Shown here: one piece after another, positions 33,241 through 39,357 of the stretch
Layout of the letters: every line of letters begins with the position of its first letter
Numbering within the stretch: the stretch's first letter is position 1
Origin: Candidatus Bathyarchaeota archaeon
Lineage (GTDB): Archaea; Thermoproteota; Bathyarchaeia; Bathyarchaeales; Bathycorpusculaceae
Assembly: GCA_963733095.1 (NCBI GenBank)
Contig: CAVTBV010000013.1
Span: forward strand, 128,001-192,000
Direction of reading: 5' to 3'
Length of the DNA: 64,000 bases
The notes under the pieces: model-generated
Databases searched by the model: none
What the model was told of the DNA's origin: nothing
Seen by the model: only the letters and a program-made list of their open reading frames with translations
Position numbers and translations under genes: made by a program

Positions 33241-33478
33241 TAATATCTCTTCAAGTCTTTAATTAGACGAATTTTAACTTAAAAAGTATCCCATACTAAA
33301 CTTGATATGCTGAATTTGTTAAGTTTGATTAAAACATTGAGATTACCGTTAGAAGAAACAACAAGGCGCTTCTTCTTTCTAACTCTAAAATTGCTTGTTT
33401 TTAGAACTTTTTAGCCGTCATTCCTATAAAGGCGCATCCGGACAACGGACACGTATAATTCGTGGAGGTCAAAAAAAA

Positions 33479-33760
33479 ATGGTTGGAGAAATAAACACAA
33501 TAATCGAATTAAACCCTGAATTGGCAAATTTAGCATATGAAATAGGTTTAAATCCATCTAAAATATGCGAAAGTGCCATAAAATTGGCAATACGGCGTCT
33601 AAAGGGCTTAAATGTTGAGAAATTGATGGTGGACGAGGCGGGATTTGAACCCGCGACCTCCACGATGCCAACGTGGCGATCATGCCAGACTGATCTACTC
33701 GCCCAAACTATCTGGCTTCTACATTCTAATTCGGCTCGTTTAATAAGCGTTTCTTATTGA
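33479..33760 (+). CDS. RHH/CcdA-like ORF running antisense through tRNA-Ala (possible Int(N)-type remnant of an integrated element)
   Basis: GGAGGT RBS; LANLAYEIGLNPSKICESAIKLAIRRL followed by tRNA-antisense-encoded MVDEAGFEPATSTMPTWR. Confidence 0.5.
   Translation: MVGEINTIIELNPELANLAYEIGLNPSKICESAIKLAIRRLKGLNVEKLMVDEAGFEPATSTMPTWRSCQTDLLAQTIWLLHSNSARLISVSY
33627..33704 (-). tRNA. tRNA-Ala(GGC), CCA encoded
   Basis: GGGCGAG/CTCGTCC acceptor with G3:U70, GATC D-stem, CCACG-TTGGCAT-CGTGG anticodon arm, GGTTCAAATCC T-arm, ACCA end. Confidence 0.97.
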
Positions 33761-34134
33761 GGGATTTCGTTTATTATTGGGGTTTCCAACGTTGGACTTT
33801 GGGGTTCATCGGGTTGCTGGCTAAACGGTGTGCCTCAGTAGCACTTGTTTTAGGGCGCCTCCAATAATTCTACTTCTAATCCACGATAATCCAAGTAGCT
33901 TTCCAAGAGTTCTTTATAGATCTTAACTCCAGAAATGATGCCAGATAACCTCAGTATCTCGCCTTGTCCAAGCCTGGTGTTTCCAGCCCCCCCAACGTGG
34001 CACAAAGCTTCTTTAATTCTTCTTCGATGCTGGGTAATTCTTTGGGGATTTCTAGTGTGGTAGAACACTCATGAAAGACAAGCCATCGAAGTACCGAAGG
34101 CACCTAAGACTTACCCTAAACCAGCAAATCACCT

Positions 34135-35178
34135 CTATCCATTTAAAGACTTAAGCTTTTTGGCATACCTCACCTCATCAACCGACTCATACGGCTCCTT
34201 TCTAGTCAACATAAACCAAATAATCTTTAGCATCTTATTCGCAACAGCAACCACCGCCTTCTGATCACCACGCCGCTTAGCAACACGCTCATAGAAAGCC
34301 TTCATCCTTGGATCAAACACAGACCCAACCCTAGCAGACTCAACCATAATCCACCTAAGCATAGTGCTGCCCTGCTTTGTAATATTGCCATGATATTCGA
34401 TATCGCCTGACTGATGCAAAGACGGTGCAAGTCCAGCCCAAGAAACAAGCTTCTTATAATCGCTAAACCGCTCAATACTGCCAATCTCTGACTTAATCAG
34501 CAAAGCACTATACACGTTAATTCCCTTCAAACTCAACAGTAGCCTAACGTCACTATCAAAAGAAGCCCTCGACGTAATCTCCGCATCCACACGCTCTATC
34601 TGCAAATCCAGGTTCTCCAAATGCATCAAATAGTTATCCAGCATCAACCGATCAAGCCCAGACAACTCCAAAGACTTCAACCACTGTATTCCCGCTTTGC
34701 CAAACAAATCACTAAATTCATGTTTGAGGCCATTTCGATCAATCAAAGCATGAGCCTTATTCTTCACCATCGTACGCAACTTAACAATTGATAATCGATG
34801 ACGTACTAAGCTTCGTATTTCTCTCATTTCTTTAGGCGGAACATAGCACTCTGGAATCAAATCAGTCCTCAAAAGATGCGCCAGAATCCTAGCATCAACC
34901 TTATCACTCTTAATTCTAGCTGAAGCTATCGCTTTAGTTCTCAACGGATTCGCCAACACCACAGGAATATGCAGCTCATCTAATTGATTGTATAGGTCCA
35001 GCCAATAAGGTCCAGTGGACTCCATTACAACCTTATCATCCATCGACAGCAGCAGAGTTAGGCTAGCTATTCCATCGGAATTGTTGTTGAAATCAAGCTC
35101 TTTTACGATTCTTCCTTGAGGGTTCATTATTGCTGCTCGGCACTTTTTCTTTCCAATATCTACTCCTACATACTTCAT
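34135..35178 (-). CDS. IS110 family DEDD recombinase/transposase (347 aa, intact)
   Basis: YVGVDIGK, VVMEST and KSDKVDA (DEDD), plus AGLAPSLHQSG (catalytic Ser) in the Tnp domain. Confidence 0.95.
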   Translation of the reverse strand: MKYVGVDIGKKKCRAAIMNPQGRIVKELDFNNNSDGIASLTLLLSMDDKVVMESTGPYWLDLYNQLDELHIPVVLANPLRTKAIASARIKSDKVDARILAHLLRTDLIPECYVPPKEMREIRSLVRHRLSIVKLRTMVKNKAHALIDRNGLKHEFSDLFGKAGIQWLKSLELSGLDRLMLDNYLMHLENLDLQIERVDAEITSRASFDSDVRLLLSLKGINVYSALLIKSEIGSIERFSDYKKLVSWAGLAPSLHQSGDIEYHGNITKQGSTMLRWIMVESARVGSVFDPRMKAFYERVAKRRGDQKAVVAVANKMLKIIWFMLTRKEPYESVDEVRYAKKLKSLNG

Positions 35179-35184
35179 TTCTAG

Positions 35185-35325
35185 TTTCCTGCTGGTTTCA
35201 GGCTGCATTCACTCATACGGGCGTTTGGCCCAGTTCTTTAGCAGCTCAGGATTCGCCCAGTCAACAACGCGGTCGCAAAGACCATGTTCTACCACGGGCT
35301 AACCAGCCAGTACAAGTTGGCAGAA
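35185..35325 (-). ncRNA. Predicted bridge RNA (5' hairpin, target-binding loop, donor-binding loop)
   Basis: GCCC-[GUGGUAGAACAU]-GGUC(UUUGC)GACC-[GCGUUGUUGACU]-GGGC and GCUGC-[UAAAGAACU]-GGGC(CAAAC)GCCC-[GUAUGAGUGAAU]-GCAGC. The loop strands match the flanks and element ends; transcript ends are estimated. Confidence 0.8.
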
Positions 35326-35700
35326 GTCTTTCATAAAGTCAACAACAATTGGAATTTTTTGGGTGTTGTTGTTCTTTCAGAAGTCCTATTTTTATGAGTT
35401 TTGGCGAACCGCTTCTTCAGTGTATTCTCCGTTAAAGCTGAAGGGTAAGACGCCAAGATCAGTGGTTCCATACTTGTACCAGTCTTGAAGTTTATGCTCG
35501 TCGTCTGCAGGCCATTGCTTCCCTTTTGGCATGTTTTTTGCCCCACAAATAATCCAACTATTGTGCCGCTTGTCATGTCTGAACCTGAGCTTTGTCCTAC
35601 TGATGCTTCGCCCAACTCTTTTTTCGGTGATTTGTGGTCCTAACTCTTTTTCTAATCTCTCTCAAAATTATTTGTTTTGTAGGTCAATTTACCGTTTAGC

Positions 35701-38700
35701 TCATTGGGGGGGCAAACGTATACTGAATTTTGTTCCTTTTCCTACTTGGCTTTCAAAAGCTACCGTGCCGCCTAAAGCTTCAGTCATACGCTTAATTACG
35801 GCTAAACCAAATCCCTGACCTTTAGCTTTAGTCGTGAACATTGGCGTGAATAATTTGTTTTTCACGCTTTCAGGTATGCCAACGCCTGTGTCTTCTACTG
35901 TTATGACCGAATCATGTTTTTTCTTGTCTCTGAAAGCATGTATCGTTAATTGGCCGCCTTCCGGCATTGCTTGAACCGCATTATTAACCAAATTGAACAT
36001 AATACGATTAATGAAACAAGAGTCAGCCATAATTTTCCTAGCATCAGTTTCCACTGCGACACTTATGCTAACATTCTCAGGCCAACCGTTCTTTGCTATC
36101 AACTCATCCACTACTAGCTTAAGGTCGGTTTCCTCAACTCGAGGGCTAAGTGGTCTGGCAAAATCTTGCAAATCCTGAACGATCTTGTTGATGTAAGTGA
36201 CGTTCTTTTCAATCTCGCTCAAACTTTCTAAAGTATTCTTTTTCTCTTCGCTCTCAGGCGTCAAAGCCAACTCTGCCTTGGCCAAATAGACATCGCTAGT
36301 TATAGCCTGTAAAGGGTTTCGAATATCATGACCAACCATCCCGGCAGTCGTTCCGATGGCGGCTAAACGTTCAGAATCTCTAAGCTGGATTGTTCGCTCT
36401 TCGACCAGCTTTTCTAAATTTCCACTATATTCTTTGAGCTTATCTTGTATTGCCTTGCGTTCGGTAATATCCATGAATAAAGACGCAAACATCCCTTTAT
36501 TTGGACTAAAAGAATAAACTTCGTAATATCGACGGGTGTTTTGGTTATAACTTTCAAAATGAGCGGGTTCACCAGTCAACGCGACATTACAATAAGCTTG
36601 GACCCAACTATCCTCAAGCCCGGGAAGAGCCTGTTTTATCGTTTTCCCCATCAGTTCAGTTAGCTTAAGACCTGTTTGCTTCTCAAAAGCATTATTTGCT
36701 TCAATTATGCGAAAATCAACAGGAATTCCTTTACTATCAAGGATTGGTTCACCTAAAAAGAAGGCTTCGTCCATATTAGCAAAAAGGGTACGATATCGCA
36801 GCTCGCTGTCACGCAGAGCCGATTCTATTTTTTTGCGTTCAGTATTGTCTGTGAAGGTTAAAACAGCGCCATCAATTCTTTTCTCTTCACTTAAATACGG
36901 ACGGATTCTAATTTCACATAGTCTGTCTCCACTGAGTGCAACTTCTCGATCGACAGCCTTTAGTTTAGTGATCGAATCCAGAATTGCGCCTTCTAAATCT
37001 GCACCCTGAACACCTATGTTTACTTTAGTTATTGGCTGCCCCACATCGGATGGAGAAATTTTCAAGTAACTTTGAGCAGAAGATGTAAACCGCCTAATCT
37101 TCAGGTCGTTATCTACAATAACCACTGGCAAATCAATATTTGTTTGCAGATTAGCTAAGTCATCATTTAGGCGTCCAAGCGCCAAATTTCGGTTCTTGAG
37201 CTCCTCATTAAGTGTCTGTAGTTCCTCGTTTCCAGACTGCAGCTCCTCTTTTGCCGTTTCCAACTCTTCATTGGTGCTCTGTAATTCTTCATTGCTGGAT
37301 TGCGCTTCCTCCATGGTTGATCGCAATTCTTCATTTGTTGCTTCTTGCACTTCAATAATGGTCTGCAAAGACTGCTTGGTTGACTCCAATTCCCCTTTAA
37401 GATCATTAATTTGTCCATCTTTGATGGACTTCTTTTCGCCAGGTATTTTTGTAGTTTCAGTTTCCTGAGATAAATTATAAAGTTGTATTGTGGGTTCTTG
37501 GAATGTTACAATGAAAAAGGGTTCTTCATAATCCGTTGTTTTCAAGGGTTTAACTTGGATAATTACGGTTTTCTGTTCCCCGTCGCTTTTGAACTGAATG
37601 GTTTCTTTTTGAGTTTTGTTTTCTTTTCTTGCTAAGTAAACTGAAGTTTGAACGTTGGTCCTCAATTCTTTGCGAACCATTTTTGTCACATTTAAGCTTG
37701 CGGTTCCTGATTCATGCCTTAGGTATGGGTTAACTTGTCCGCGGAAAAAAAGAATATCCAAATTATTACTTACAAGTAGAGTTGCGGGAACATACTCAGC
37801 CATTAATAGACGGTCGACATCTTCTTTGAGCGAAACCATAGAATTGGGCTTCTCAGATTGCTTTTCCAGTTTTTTTTGGAAACTGTAGGGAACAAATGTT
37901 TCTGGATGCGAAAAGGCCTGGGGCTGGGATCGTTTCTTTTTGTAGATTAAACCTTTGGTGGTGACTGGTTCGAATAGGTAACTGAATTTGCCTATGCTCT
38001 CCGATTCGCCTAAAACAAGAAAACCGTTAGACTTCAACCCATAATGAAAGATTGGAAAGACTCTTTCATGCAGCAAAGAATCAAAGTAAATCAAAACATT
38101 GCGGCACATTATCAGGTCTAGGTTGGAGAAGGGTGGATCGCTTGTTATGTCCTGCTTTGCGAATATGCACATGTCGCGGATTAGTTTGGTTATATGGTAG
38201 TTTCCATTTTGCATGCTAAAGAAACGTTTCAGTTTGCTCTCAGAAATATTTTCTTCTATGGTTTTGGGGTATATTCCTTGGCGAGCTTTGTCTATGTTTT
38301 TTTCATTTGCGTCAGTGCCAAAAATTTGAACCCGAATTTCGGGTTTGGCTTTTTCTTCTAAGAATTCCTGAACTGCTATAGCAATGGAGTAGACTTCTTC
38401 ACCCGTTGAACAACCTGGAACCCAAACTCTAATAGATTCATTAGCCACGCGGTTTTTGATCAGCTCGGGAAAGACTTTTTCTTCTAAAGCCTTGAAGGTT
38501 TTTGGTTCTCTAAAGAAACTTGTAACCCCTATGAGAAGGTCATCAAACAACGCAAGGATCTCGTTTGGGTGGGTTCGTAGAAATGCCACGTATTCTTTGT
38601 TGTTTTCTATTTTGTTTATTACCCTGCGTCGTGTGATACGCCGGTTTATAGTTGTTTCTTTATAGTGGGTAAAATCAACGCCGTATGAGGCCTTAAGCAT

Positions 38701-39357
38701 CATGAGGATTCTTTTAAGGTCAGTTTCACCTTTAGCTTTCTGTAGAGCTTCTGAAGGGGGAAGCGCGAGTTGGGGGTTCCTGGCGAGTCTAACTAATTCT
38801 TTTGCTATGTTTTCGGGAGAGAGAATAAAATATGCTGTTTCAGCATTTATGGCGTTTTTGGGCATGTCGGGGTATTGAGCTGTCTCGGGGTCTTGAACGA
38901 AAGTTATGCCTCCTTCAACTTTGATTGCTTTTAGTCCTTCGGTTCCATCATTTCCCGTTCCTGAGAGTACGATTCCGATTGCTTGGGTTTTTCGCTCTGA
39001 GGATAAGGAAATCATGAAGTCGTTGATTGGTTTGAGAGCTTCACCTTTAGGAACAAGTTTAAGGAGACCTTTTTTTAGGGTCATAGTTGTTGCTGGGGGG
39101 ATGACATAAACTTGGTTCTTTTCAACTTTCATTCCAACGGTGACTTGTAGAACCTTCATTTGGGTGGATCTGGAGAGGATTTCTGGAAGCATGCTTTCTT
39201 GTCCTGGGGCTAAATGTTGGATGACAACAAACGCCATACCTGTATCTATGGGCAAGGTTTCTAGCAGTTTCCTGATGGGATCTAATCCGCCTGCAGAAGC
39301 TCCAATCCCAACAATCGGAAACTCGTTTACAGCTCTGGTTTCAGAAACGCTTTCTAT
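35701..39357 (-). CDS. CheB methylesterase-CheR methyltransferase-PAS-histidine kinase fusion
   Basis: GIGASAGG (upstream of the ORF-track start), QHL, LSGTGNDG, VTSFFRE, GCSTGEE, CRNVLIYF, EELQS coiled coil, GHDIRNPL; apparent ATA start. Confidence 0.9.
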   Translation of the reverse strand: MESVSETRAVNEFPIVGIGASAGGLDPIRKLLETLPIDTGMAFVVIQHLAPGQESMLPEILSRSTQMKVLQVTVGMKVEKNQVYVIPPATTMTLKKGLLKLVPKGEALKPINDFMISLSSERKTQAIGIVLSGTGNDGTEGLKAIKVEGGITFVQDPETAQYPDMPKNAINAETAYFILSPENIAKELVRLARNPQLALPPSEALQKAKGETDLKRILMMLKASYGVDFTHYKETTINRRITRRRVINKIENNKEYVAFLRTHPNEILALFDDLLIGVTSFFREPKTFKALEEKVFPELIKNRVANESIRVWVPGCSTGEEVYSIAIAVQEFLEEKAKPEIRVQIFGTDANEKNIDKARQGIYPKTIEENISESKLKRFFSMQNGNYHITKLIRDMCIFAKQDITSDPPFSNLDLIMCRNVLIYFDSLLHERVFPIFHYGLKSNGFLVLGESESIGKFSYLFEPVTTKGLIYKKKRSQPQAFSHPETFVPYSFQKKLEKQSEKPNSMVSLKEDVDRLLMAEYVPATLLVSNNLDILFFRGQVNPYLRHESGTASLNVTKMVRKELRTNVQTSVYLARKENKTQKETIQFKSDGEQKTVIIQVKPLKTTDYEEPFFIVTFQEPTIQLYNLSQETETTKIPGEKKSIKDGQINDLKGELESTKQSLQTIIEVQEATNEELRSTMEEAQSSNEELQSTNEELETAKEELQSGNEELQTLNEELKNRNLALGRLNDDLANLQTNIDLPVVIVDNDLKIRRFTSSAQSYLKISPSDVGQPITKVNIGVQGADLEGAILDSITKLKAVDREVALSGDRLCEIRIRPYLSEEKRIDGAVLTFTDNTERKKIESALRDSELRYRTLFANMDEAFFLGEPILDSKGIPVDFRIIEANNAFEKQTGLKLTELMGKTIKQALPGLEDSWVQAYCNVALTGEPAHFESYNQNTRRYYEVYSFSPNKGMFASLFMDITERKAIQDKLKEYSGNLEKLVEERTIQLRDSERLAAIGTTAGMVGHDIRNPLQAITSDVYLAKAELALTPESEEKKNTLESLSEIEKNVTYINKIVQDLQDFARPLSPRVEETDLKLVVDELIAKNGWPENVSISVAVETDARKIMADSCFINRIMFNLVNNAVQAMPEGGQLTIHAFRDKKKHDSVITVEDTGVGIPESVKNKLFTPMFTTKAKGQGFGLAVIKRMTEALGGTVAFESQVGKGTKFSIRLPPQ

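Follow-up and report, generated by a model that had tools for sequence, protein, structure and literature searches.

Insertion sequences of the IS110 family are already known to recombine DNA under the guidance of an RNA of their own (Durrant 2024; Hiraizumi 2024; Siddiquee 2024). In the IS110 group the bridge RNA is encoded in a long left end, and the subterminal repeats measure 2-3 bp (PMC11208160). According to the sections of Siddiquee et al. (PMC11187229) that were consulted, the seekRNA of IS1111 elements carries the top-strand match 5' of the bottom-strand match, and that of ISEc21 carries it 3'; a few IS1111 relatives, e.g. ISMtsp17, have an upstream non-coding region, and the RNAs of these are not decoded in the same sections. 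Among archaea, 662 homologues of IS110 recombinases were catalogued by Vaysset et al. (bioRxiv 10.1101/2024.06.21.599552). The accessible part of that study concerns the same family in archaeal hosts and treats the proteins and a link to Nop5, not guide RNAs. Variants of bridge RNAs from bacterial and archaeal genomes were clustered in a 2026 preprint, as far as its accessible part goes. The combination of a bridge RNA with Bathyarchaeia was not found in the literature, subscription papers and supplements being outside the scope of the search, and the accessible parts of the papers on bridge recombinases and archaea contained no decoded archaeal bridge RNA (supplements, such as those of Durrant and Siddiquee Supplementary Fig. 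2, again outside scope). Here we describe an insertion sequence in a 64,000-nt stretch of a Candidatus Bathyarchaeota genome (assembly GCA_963733095.1, contig CAVTBV010000013.1), called the window below. Judged from its sequence, it is very probably an intact IS110-family element guided by its own bridge (seek) RNA. It is a newly documented case of the system known from bacteria and not a new kind of system, and the mechanism is unchanged. As read here, its ends and guide polarity are of the IS1111 type, and its RNA, upstream of the gene, is placed like that of IS110-type elements. An earlier note on this DNA, made from the letters alone, had already proposed an archaeal host and such an RNA; the lineage is that of Bathyarchaeia, judged by relatives at the family level, one of the Bathyarchaeota MAGs (metagenome-assembled genomes) belonging to the same family.

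The limits of the element were read from an unoccupied paralogous site. The 3' part of the sequence upstream of the insertion sequence, hairpin included, recurs on the same contig without the element, at 94% identity over 121 nt (Table 1). The empty site reads ...ATTGTTGTTGTTCTACACTGG... where the occupied window reads ...ATTGTTGTTG[element]TTCTACCACACTAG..., and it runs on past the insertion point, the uninterrupted text being ...GAAAGAACAACAACACCC(A)nTTCCGATTGTTGTTGTTCTACACTGGAAATCCCC; spelled out in full, the occupied text consists of the flank ATTGTTGTTG, the element ACTTTATG...CATGAGTG and the flank TTCTACCACACTAGAAATCCCC. This comparison sets the element between GTTGTTG and TTCTAC with TG common to both, the TG core occurring a single time in the empty site and at each junction of the element in the occupied one. 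It follows from the paralogous site that the element occupies 34066-35339, that the stretches matched by the RNA loops are true host flanks abutting at the TG core, and that a hairpin, AGAACAACAAC / GTTGTTGTTCT, provides the target in its 3' arm. The comparison of empty and occupied sites also shows site-specific insertion at a short shared core without target duplication. On the sense strand the element starts with ACTTTATGAAAG... and ends with ...CTTTCATGAG-TG, and these ends are kept across 30 homologous loci. Its left subterminal repeat ATGAAAGAC is the reverse complement of 34079..34071, and the left-end motif TTTATGAAAG is kept with at most one mismatch in the 30 loci used. The reconstructed target comprises 16 nt, GTTGT-TG-TTCTACCAC, which is GTGGTAGAA-CA-ACAAC on the other strand. 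The latter is the programmed target proposed in the earlier note, and the empty site together with the flank covariation described below identifies it as the real insertion site. Only three hairpins of the target type occur in the 2.84-Mb assembly; the third one lies on contig C12 near 343147.

The RNA loop read as the target-binding loop has the letters and coordinates that were first proposed for it, GCCC-GUGGUAGAACAU-GGUC(UUUGC)GACC-GCGUUGUUGACU-GGGC at 35299..35255 (in DNA letters of the minus strand, GCCC-GTGGTAGAACAT-GGTC(TTTGC)GACC-GCGTTGTTGACT-GGGC). The claimed identity of its first strand (35285-35295) with 34057-34067 was found again at 11 of 11 positions. Since GTGGTAGAACA (35295..35285, minus) equals the plus strand of 34057-34067, the RNA is complementary to TGTTCTACCAC at the far junction on the recombinase strand; that is, the 5' strand of the loop is complementary to the core plus 9 nt of the flank at the recombinase 3' end. 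The 3' strand equals 5 nt of the RNA-side flank plus the core, its GTTGTTG being identical to minus-strand 35346..35340. This second match had also been claimed, for GUUGUUG and the near-end flank at 35340-35346, and really runs over 10 nt (GTTGTTGACT, 35346..35337; 10/10), of which 3 nt lie inside the element. After the core, the 3' strand continues with ACU, the same three bases with which the element begins, and elements starting with ATT carry AUU in the target loop (L045, L052).

The assignment of both strands was examined in homologous copies. Among 201 genomes of the same family, 23 contained relatives by protein search, and a pattern scan with one genome per species gave 79 loci. Those with at least 55% identity (n = 34) came from Bathyarchaeia, Bathyarchaeota or Bathyarchaeales in 22 cases and from Nitrososphaerota/Thaumarchaeota or their orders in 8, the rest being assigned to Promethearchaeati (2), to an 'archaeon' (1) and to Anaerolineaceae (1, with a truncated gene). 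L042, L049, L059, L061 and L068, with no left-end motif in the locus, were dropped from the counts, as were L043, in which the motif lies beyond the right end, and the loci of at most 37% identity (L065, L067, L070 onward). Both loops could be parsed in all 30 homologous loci having the left-end motif. Duplicate pairs of guide and flank were counted once, which reduced the pairs from 24 to 22 for the 5' strand and from 27 to 23 for the 3' strand. The 5' strand agreed with its own right flank (8 nt beyond the core) at a mean of 6.36 of 8 positions and with the right flanks of other copies at 3.19 (462 non-cognate pairs); a score of at least 6 was reached by 17 of 22 cognate and 23 of 462 non-cognate pairs. 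For the 3' strand and the left flank (7 nt before the core) the means were 5.13 of 7 and 3.03 (506 non-cognate pairs), with a score of at least 5, where 5 amounts to a full match, the first two positions being spacer, in 21 of 23 cognate and 52 of 506 non-cognate pairs. The observed guide-flank sum was reached by none of 20000 permutations for either strand. Kinship among the copies inflates this permutation figure, so that the number of distinct retargeting events is the sounder measure; by reading of the parsed loci, the homologous copies have ~17 clearly different targets. Identical loops in unrelated flanks, which would have spoken against the guide reading according to the earlier note, were not found: the four copies with identical loops in one metagenome-assembled genome (MAG) all sit in CTTTTT-AG-AAGGC. 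The covariation of loops with flanks that the same note had suggested as a check is thus present in both strands, which match opposite target strands, overlap at the core and vary together with the flanks across orthologues (22 and 23 non-redundant pairs).

The Anaerolineaceae copy (L066, on a MAG contig) is the only one of at least 55% identity that is assigned to bacteria, with residues 1-216 matched. Its flank is the target of a close archaeal relative, L048, despite the lost match of the 3' guide, and it may represent a mis-binned contig or an old transfer.

The second loop was absent from the earlier note, as were the 3-nt handshake-like extension into the element and the empty-site paralogue. 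Its RNA reads GCUGC-UAAAGAACU-GGGC(CAAAC)GCCC-GUAUGAGUGAAU-GCAGC (35245..35202). In the window its 3' strand repeats the right end, ATGAG, followed by the core TG, and agreement with right end and core was found in 30 of 30 loci, a switch between TG and AG included. Eight of these 30 have GAGAG in place of GAGUG in the donor 3' strand and AG in both strands of the target loop too. Where the right end is available, AG is present at the junction in all 7 AG-type loci and TG in all 18 TG-type loci; the core thus switches from TG to AG in four places together. The donor 5' strand is complementary over its first 5 nt to positions 2-6 of the element (CTTTA in the window), with which these bases covary, as CCTTA/UAAGG in 6 of 6 loci, CTATA/UAUAG in 4 of 4 and GTTTA/UAAAC in the single locus of that type (1/1). 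The second loop thus matches the element's own ends, as befits a donor loop. The bases after the core in the donor 3' strand are UUU in L053, L055, L056 and L064 and AAU in the clade of the window (L035/L040/L045). Pairing with the AA at the end of the long target half-site would be possible for UUU and not for AAU, so a handshake-like pairing on the donor side may be clade-specific.

The RNA core lies upstream of the recombinase gene in the 161-nt left non-coding end. The RNAalifold consensus of 27 distinct sequences consists of a closing stem around two modules, in each of which an internal loop separates an outer stem from an inner hairpin; this makes 28 pairs in 5 helices with 97.1% of cells paired. 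Compensatory changes occur in 8 of the 28 pairs, and the covariation score was reached by none of 500 shuffles; with the partners slid by 1-3 columns as a control, 23-42% were paired. The outer stem of the target loop shows compensation, e.g. at columns 28/74 (CG 12, UA 12), and that of the donor loop is invariant across the alignment and so uninformative on covariation. In the alignment, the non-coding end therefore folds into stem-flanked internal loops, and the covariance model built for it, R1, scores 148 bits on the RNA of the window. Archaeal TATA boxes usually lie at a distance from the transcript start comparable to the ~29 nt between TTTATGAAAG and the first conserved RNA base, and this motif was considered as such a box in an internal promoter. 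The idea is unsupported, since the inverted repeat explains the motif; that a second Bathyarchaeia subfamily has GTATGAGAAACG in place of TTTATGAAAG also counts against it.

The recombinase has both domains of the IS110 family, PF01548 (E 2.9e-28, 99.1 bits with a cut-off of 29) and PF02371 (E 5.8e-21, 75.1 bits with a cut-off of 21.3), within its 347 aa, and its only solved relatives in the PDB are the transposases of ISCro4 (E 2.4e-17) and IS621 (E 8.9e-16). In a pairwise alignment D7/E53/D92/D95/S257 stand opposite D11/E60/D102/D105/S241 of IS621, which are the catalytic residues according to the part of Hiraizumi et al. (PMC11208158) that was consulted. With an open reading frame (ORF) and the aligned catalytic set kept, the protein is intact, as had been supposed. 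It is 23% identical to the IS5075 transposase in a full-length alignment and 23% identical to IS621 in an alignment with a 27-aa gap. Only 68 nt of the element are left 3' of its stop codon.

Four IS621 copies of E. coli W and a copy of IS5075 were checked for comparison. In IS621 the left flank ATCAGGC-CT, which adjoins the RNA-bearing end, is equalled by the first loop's 5' strand, AUCGGGCCU; GCGUAG, the 3' strand, complements CT-ACGC at the opposite end. Relative to the element body, the arrangement in the archaeal family is mirrored: its long 5' strand does not equal the flank next to the RNA-bearing end, and the left target (LT) does not join the left end (LE) as it does in the IS621 type. 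IS5075 has its RNA downstream of the gene, with AAAACGGAA complementary to the sense-strand right junction and ATAGATT equal to right end plus core, which is the same polarity as in the archaeal family. Both checks agree with Siddiquee et al., who describe a reversal of this kind between the seekRNAs of IS1111-type and IS110-type elements. The earlier note had invoked IS621-type guide logic; specification of the target by an internal loop stands, and the polarity is instead of the IS1111 (seekRNA) type. With the IS1111 elements (ISEc11, ISPa11, ISKpn4; IS4321/IS5075) the archaeal family shares a top-strand-complementary segment 5' of the matching segment, a donor 3' strand equal to right end plus core, a target loop that precedes the donor loop, and a recombinase of ~340 aa. 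Subterminal repeats within the 7-17 bp of the IS1111 type are present together with extensions, 9 bp with extensions of 5 and 3 nt where IS5075 has 12 bp with 6 and 3 nt. The family differs from IS1111 in that its RNA lies upstream and not downstream of the gene, in the low identity to the IS5075 transposase given above, and in its archaeal hosts.

The resemblance to IS621 and ISCro4 lies in the protein family, in the retained residues aligned to the catalytic set, in the upstream RNA and in two internal loops whose guides, long on the 5' side and short on the 3' side, overlap at a core of 2 nt; the 2-3 nt that follow the core and match partner DNA are like the handshake guide described in the consulted parts of PMC11208158 and PMC13626964. 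The differences are that in the archaeal element LT abuts the right end and the left donor guide (LD) is the reverse complement of the left end, that the RNA core has ~119 nt and not 177 nt as in IS621, that the long strand guides with 9 nt plus core and not 7 nt plus core, that the core is TG or AG and not CT, and that the donor 5' strand pairs over 5 nt only. Set against the layout of the IS110 group, the RNA of the window is in the left end as there, and the 9-bp repeat is unlike the 2-3 bp of that group. ISEc21, as described in the consulted sections of PMC11187229, likewise combines an upstream non-coding region, the source of a target-matching RNA, with a recombinase of intermediate size in a cluster of 345-385 aa; its top-strand match lies 3' of the bottom-strand match, and in the archaeal element it lies 5'.

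Several observations weigh against an RNA-guided element with the loops as assigned. The right flank of L055 mismatches its guide (3/8), L036, L039, L047 and L052 score only 4-5 of 8, and the match in L054 requires a 1-nt bulge. In L066 (truncated gene, bacterial bin) the 3' strand has lost its flank match (3/7), and in the clade of L053, L056 and L064 the target 5' strand covers one core base only. The donor 5' strand pairs over 5 nt; its other four bases vary and the core is left uncovered. There is no Rfam family for the RNA (33300-35600, E up to 1), the search giving a tRNA and two sub-threshold chance matches only. The fold of the single sequence 35179-35346 is not stabler than those of shuffled sequences (z = -0.66; 49 of 200 fold equally well), and its minimum-free-energy structure pairs a few loop bases. 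The folding suggested in the earlier note therefore gave no support as a single sequence, and the structure claim rests on the alignment with its high pairing. The unremarkable single fold would suit an explanation in which the identities of loops and flanks stem from chance or from the way the ends were drawn, the flank being part of the element or of a duplication, and the RNA is a 5' untranslated region (UTR) or a translation-control structure. The extension of the 3'-strand match 3 nt into the element could be taken in the same way, and small RNAs regulating expression of the IS110 recombinase were proposed for ISPpu9 (mentioned in the part of PMC11208160 consulted). We regard this explanation as extremely improbable: the empty paralogous site shows the matched bases to be host sequence, the loops change with the flanks among copies to a degree that no permutation attained for either strand, a UTR element would have no reason to follow host DNA on both sides, and flanks shared by descent from one ancestral insertion are excluded by the ~17 different targets. 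It is also very improbable that the element is a typical IS621-type (IS110-group) one with a long 5' guide reading the RNA-side flank. An RNA encoded upstream of the gene, which the IS110 group also has (PMC11208160; PMC11187229, both in the parts consulted), and the loop layout of spacer, guide, core and 2-3 nt extension parallel to IS621 would fit, but AUCGGGCCU of IS621 is the LE-side flank plus core whereas the archaeal 5' strand is complementary to the flank at the right end (RE), the archaeal repeats have 9 bp against the 2-3 bp described for the IS110 group (PMC11208160), and the archaeal polarity is shared by IS5075, an IS1111-type element.

A further explanation accepts the bridge RNA and takes the copy in the window as stranded and immobile, with an RNA that is perhaps unexpressed. 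This seems possible, if on balance unlikely. The element is present as one copy both by DNA search and by covariance model R1, which speaks against current activity. No second 16-nt target site with at most 1 mismatch is present in the assembly (95% complete), which contains three further sites at 2 mismatches and only the three hairpins mentioned above, and the nearest paralogous site, the empty near-target L002, has a 1-nt deletion in its 9-nt half-site. On the other hand, the recombinase gene is open with the residues aligned to the catalytic set of IS621 kept, both ends and both loops are intact, and the flank matches are perfect (11/11 and 10/10). A 90% identical copy with nearly the same guide (L034) is located on a 1285-bp contig of another MAG, and related copies are present in RNA-library contigs. 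Contigs of such relatives from two metatranscriptome runs of different studies cover the left end, one of them 35076-35378 with 26 differences and the other 35168-35347 with 8 differences and a continuation into a different hairpin-like flank. These are assembled contigs of relatives that may reflect DNA carry-over or read-through, and they are a weak hint at most. No circle or empty-site joints were reported in the assembled contigs, for the parts that these cover. An intact element carrying its own guide RNA remains the preferred reading.

In a search of 151 sampled genomes of the class, R1 matched 14. The weaker matches represent a second Bathyarchaeia subfamily with ~40% protein identity, ends of the form GTATGAGAAACGTTTTC..., an AG core and subterminal repeats of ~15 bp. 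By reading, 6 of 8 loci (L130, L131, L133, L136, L137, L138) have a 3' strand identical to the left flank; in L129, where the left-end motif was not located, the 3' strand agrees, and in L132, with the target loop unparsed, it does so in part only. In the three loci inspected, complementarity of the 5' strand to the right junction extends over 8 nt in L138 and 7 nt in L136 and was read by eye at 9 of 10 positions in L129, where an exact-match script gave only a 6-nt match elsewhere. In the copy on a plasmid of the haloarchaeon Halanaeroarchaeum sulfurireducens, GGCCUUGACU equals the left junction and GUGUCUAAACA is complementary to TG-TTTAGAC at the right junction, both by eye. The same two-strand logic upstream of this gene can be written as GGCCTTGACT for the left junction and GTGTCTAAACA for the complement of the right junction; the copy adjoins an IS5-family transposase gene. 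In a Solirubrobacterales copy (34% identity), R1 matches weakly upstream of the gene (16.6 bits) and the 3' strand matches the left flank over 8 nt, the guide logic being seen on the left side only; with this upstream guide, the arrangement is not exclusive to archaea. A widespread, mainly archaeal clade that joins ends and polarity of the IS1111 type with an upstream RNA of the IS110 type, with members in Bathyarchaeia and Nitrososphaerota, on a haloarchaeal plasmid and in contigs binned as Asgard, can be proposed only tentatively. With default filters and E up to 1, R1 gave no match in IS621, IS5075 and the haloarchaeal locus, nor in the Methylomarinum, Acidithiobacillus, Accumulibacter and Pseudoduganella loci.

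Three loci in Bathyarchaeia genomes G323 and G110 (L125, L127, L135) have an R1 match with no recombinase match after it, and in L127 and L135 the RNA similarity stops within the donor loop. All three resemble remnants, either decayed or solo. The chromosome of a Methylomarinum MAG (L081-L110) contains an IS110-family element of 27% identity in at least 25 near-identical copies, with ends CTAACGATC... / ...CATGTTAA and highly variable flanks; in two cases, L084 and L090, one copy adjoins another. A brief inspection of ends and flanks of these copies yielded no readable loop. In the neighborhood of the element in the window, a tRNA gene (33630-33704, minus; Rfam 61.9 bits) lies ~350 nt past the right end, and an ORF of 1184 aa (35701-39255, minus) lies upstream of the duplicated region, its sequence suggesting by eye a fusion of a CheR/CheB-like part with PAS and histidine-kinase parts.

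Table 1. Coordinates of the element, its predicted RNA, its target and the compared sites (window positions unless a contig or accession is given).
Feature	Position	Strand	Description
Insertion sequence, IS110-family	34066-35339	minus	1274 bp, single TG core copy included
Recombinase gene	34135..35178 (ATG 35178)	minus	347 aa + stop; DEDD RuvC-like domain, Tnp domain with Ser
Predicted bridge/seek RNA core	35190..35308	minus	~119 nt; closing stem GGCUGG...CCAGC around two internal-loop modules
Target-binding loop	35255..35299	minus	outer stem GCCC/GGGC; inner hairpin 35283..35271
Target-loop 5' strand GUGGUAGAACAU	35295..35284	minus	
Target-loop 3' strand GCGUUGUUGACU	35270..35259	minus	
Donor-binding loop	35202..35245	minus	outer stem GCUGC/GCAGC; inner hairpin 35231..35219
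Donor-loop 5' strand UAAAGAACU	35240..35232	minus	
Donor-loop 3' strand GUAUGAGUGAAU	35218..35207	minus	
Left subterminal inverted repeat ATGAAAGAC	35326..35334	minus	9 bp; preceded by 5-nt extension ACTTT (35339..35335)
Right subterminal inverted repeat GTCTTTCAT	34071..34079	minus	followed by GAG (34070..34068) and core TG (34067..34066)
Target half, RNA-bearing side	35340..35346	minus	GTTGT (35346..35342) + TG core (35341..35340); equals target-loop 3' strand
Target half, recombinase-3' side	34057..34065	minus	TTCTACCAC; with core complementary to target-loop 5' strand
Hairpin 5' arm AGAACAACAAC	35365..35375	minus	3' arm GTTGTTGTTCT split by insertion; natural target structure
Unoccupied paralogous site (L002)	contig C13 ~107034-107160		matches window 35340-35459
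Halanaeroarchaeum sulfurireducens plasmid copy (L139)	NZ_CP008875.1, 52290-54664		43% identity; cultured haloarchaeon

The following course of events is proposed for the preferred reading, in which we infer the production and binding of the RNA, a reaction like those of IS621 and ISEc11, and present activity of this copy. Transcription of the left non-coding end would give a ~119-nt structured RNA that contains two internal loops; possible routes are a promoter formed at the junction, an internal promoter, or read-through, the last of which was reported for IS621 (PMC13626964). The 5' strand of the target loop (9 nt plus core) would pair with the recombinase-sense strand of the target to the right of the core, and the 3' strand (5 nt plus core) with the opposite strand to the left of it, the two pairings overlapping at TG. 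Three more nucleotides (ACU), which match the first bases of the element, could act as the handshake guide does in IS621. The 3' strand of the donor loop would correspond to right end and core, and its 5' strand would pair with positions 2-6 of the left end. The RNA-bound DEDD/Ser recombinase would then join the circular RE-LE junction to GTTGT-TG-TTCTACCAC without target duplication.

The locus offers a readable natural case of archaeal RNA-guided recombination, in which target, donor, core and handshake-like bases can be assigned from the sequence and natural reprogramming is seen in many copies. It indicates that the position of the RNA and the polarity of the guides, the features separating IS110-type from IS1111-type elements, can be uncoupled, which bears on the kinship of the two groups. 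If the arrangement is new, it would be a living intermediate for the move of the bridge RNA between the ends, a step proposed by Durrant et al. for IS110 and IS1111. For tool builders, the short RNA scaffold and the 16-nt target specification are of interest: if the reading is true, this would be a compact system of a ~119-nt RNA and a 347-aa protein, functional with archaeal transcription and already redirected in nature to ~17 targets, and hence a candidate orthogonal tool. The proposal in the earlier note of a programmable tool from an archaeal lineage with no characterised example known to its author is plausible. The relative on the Halanaeroarchaeum plasmid has a cultured archaeal host and could serve as a test system. 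The lineage would also be one in which the proposed link from IS110 to Nop5 may be examined.

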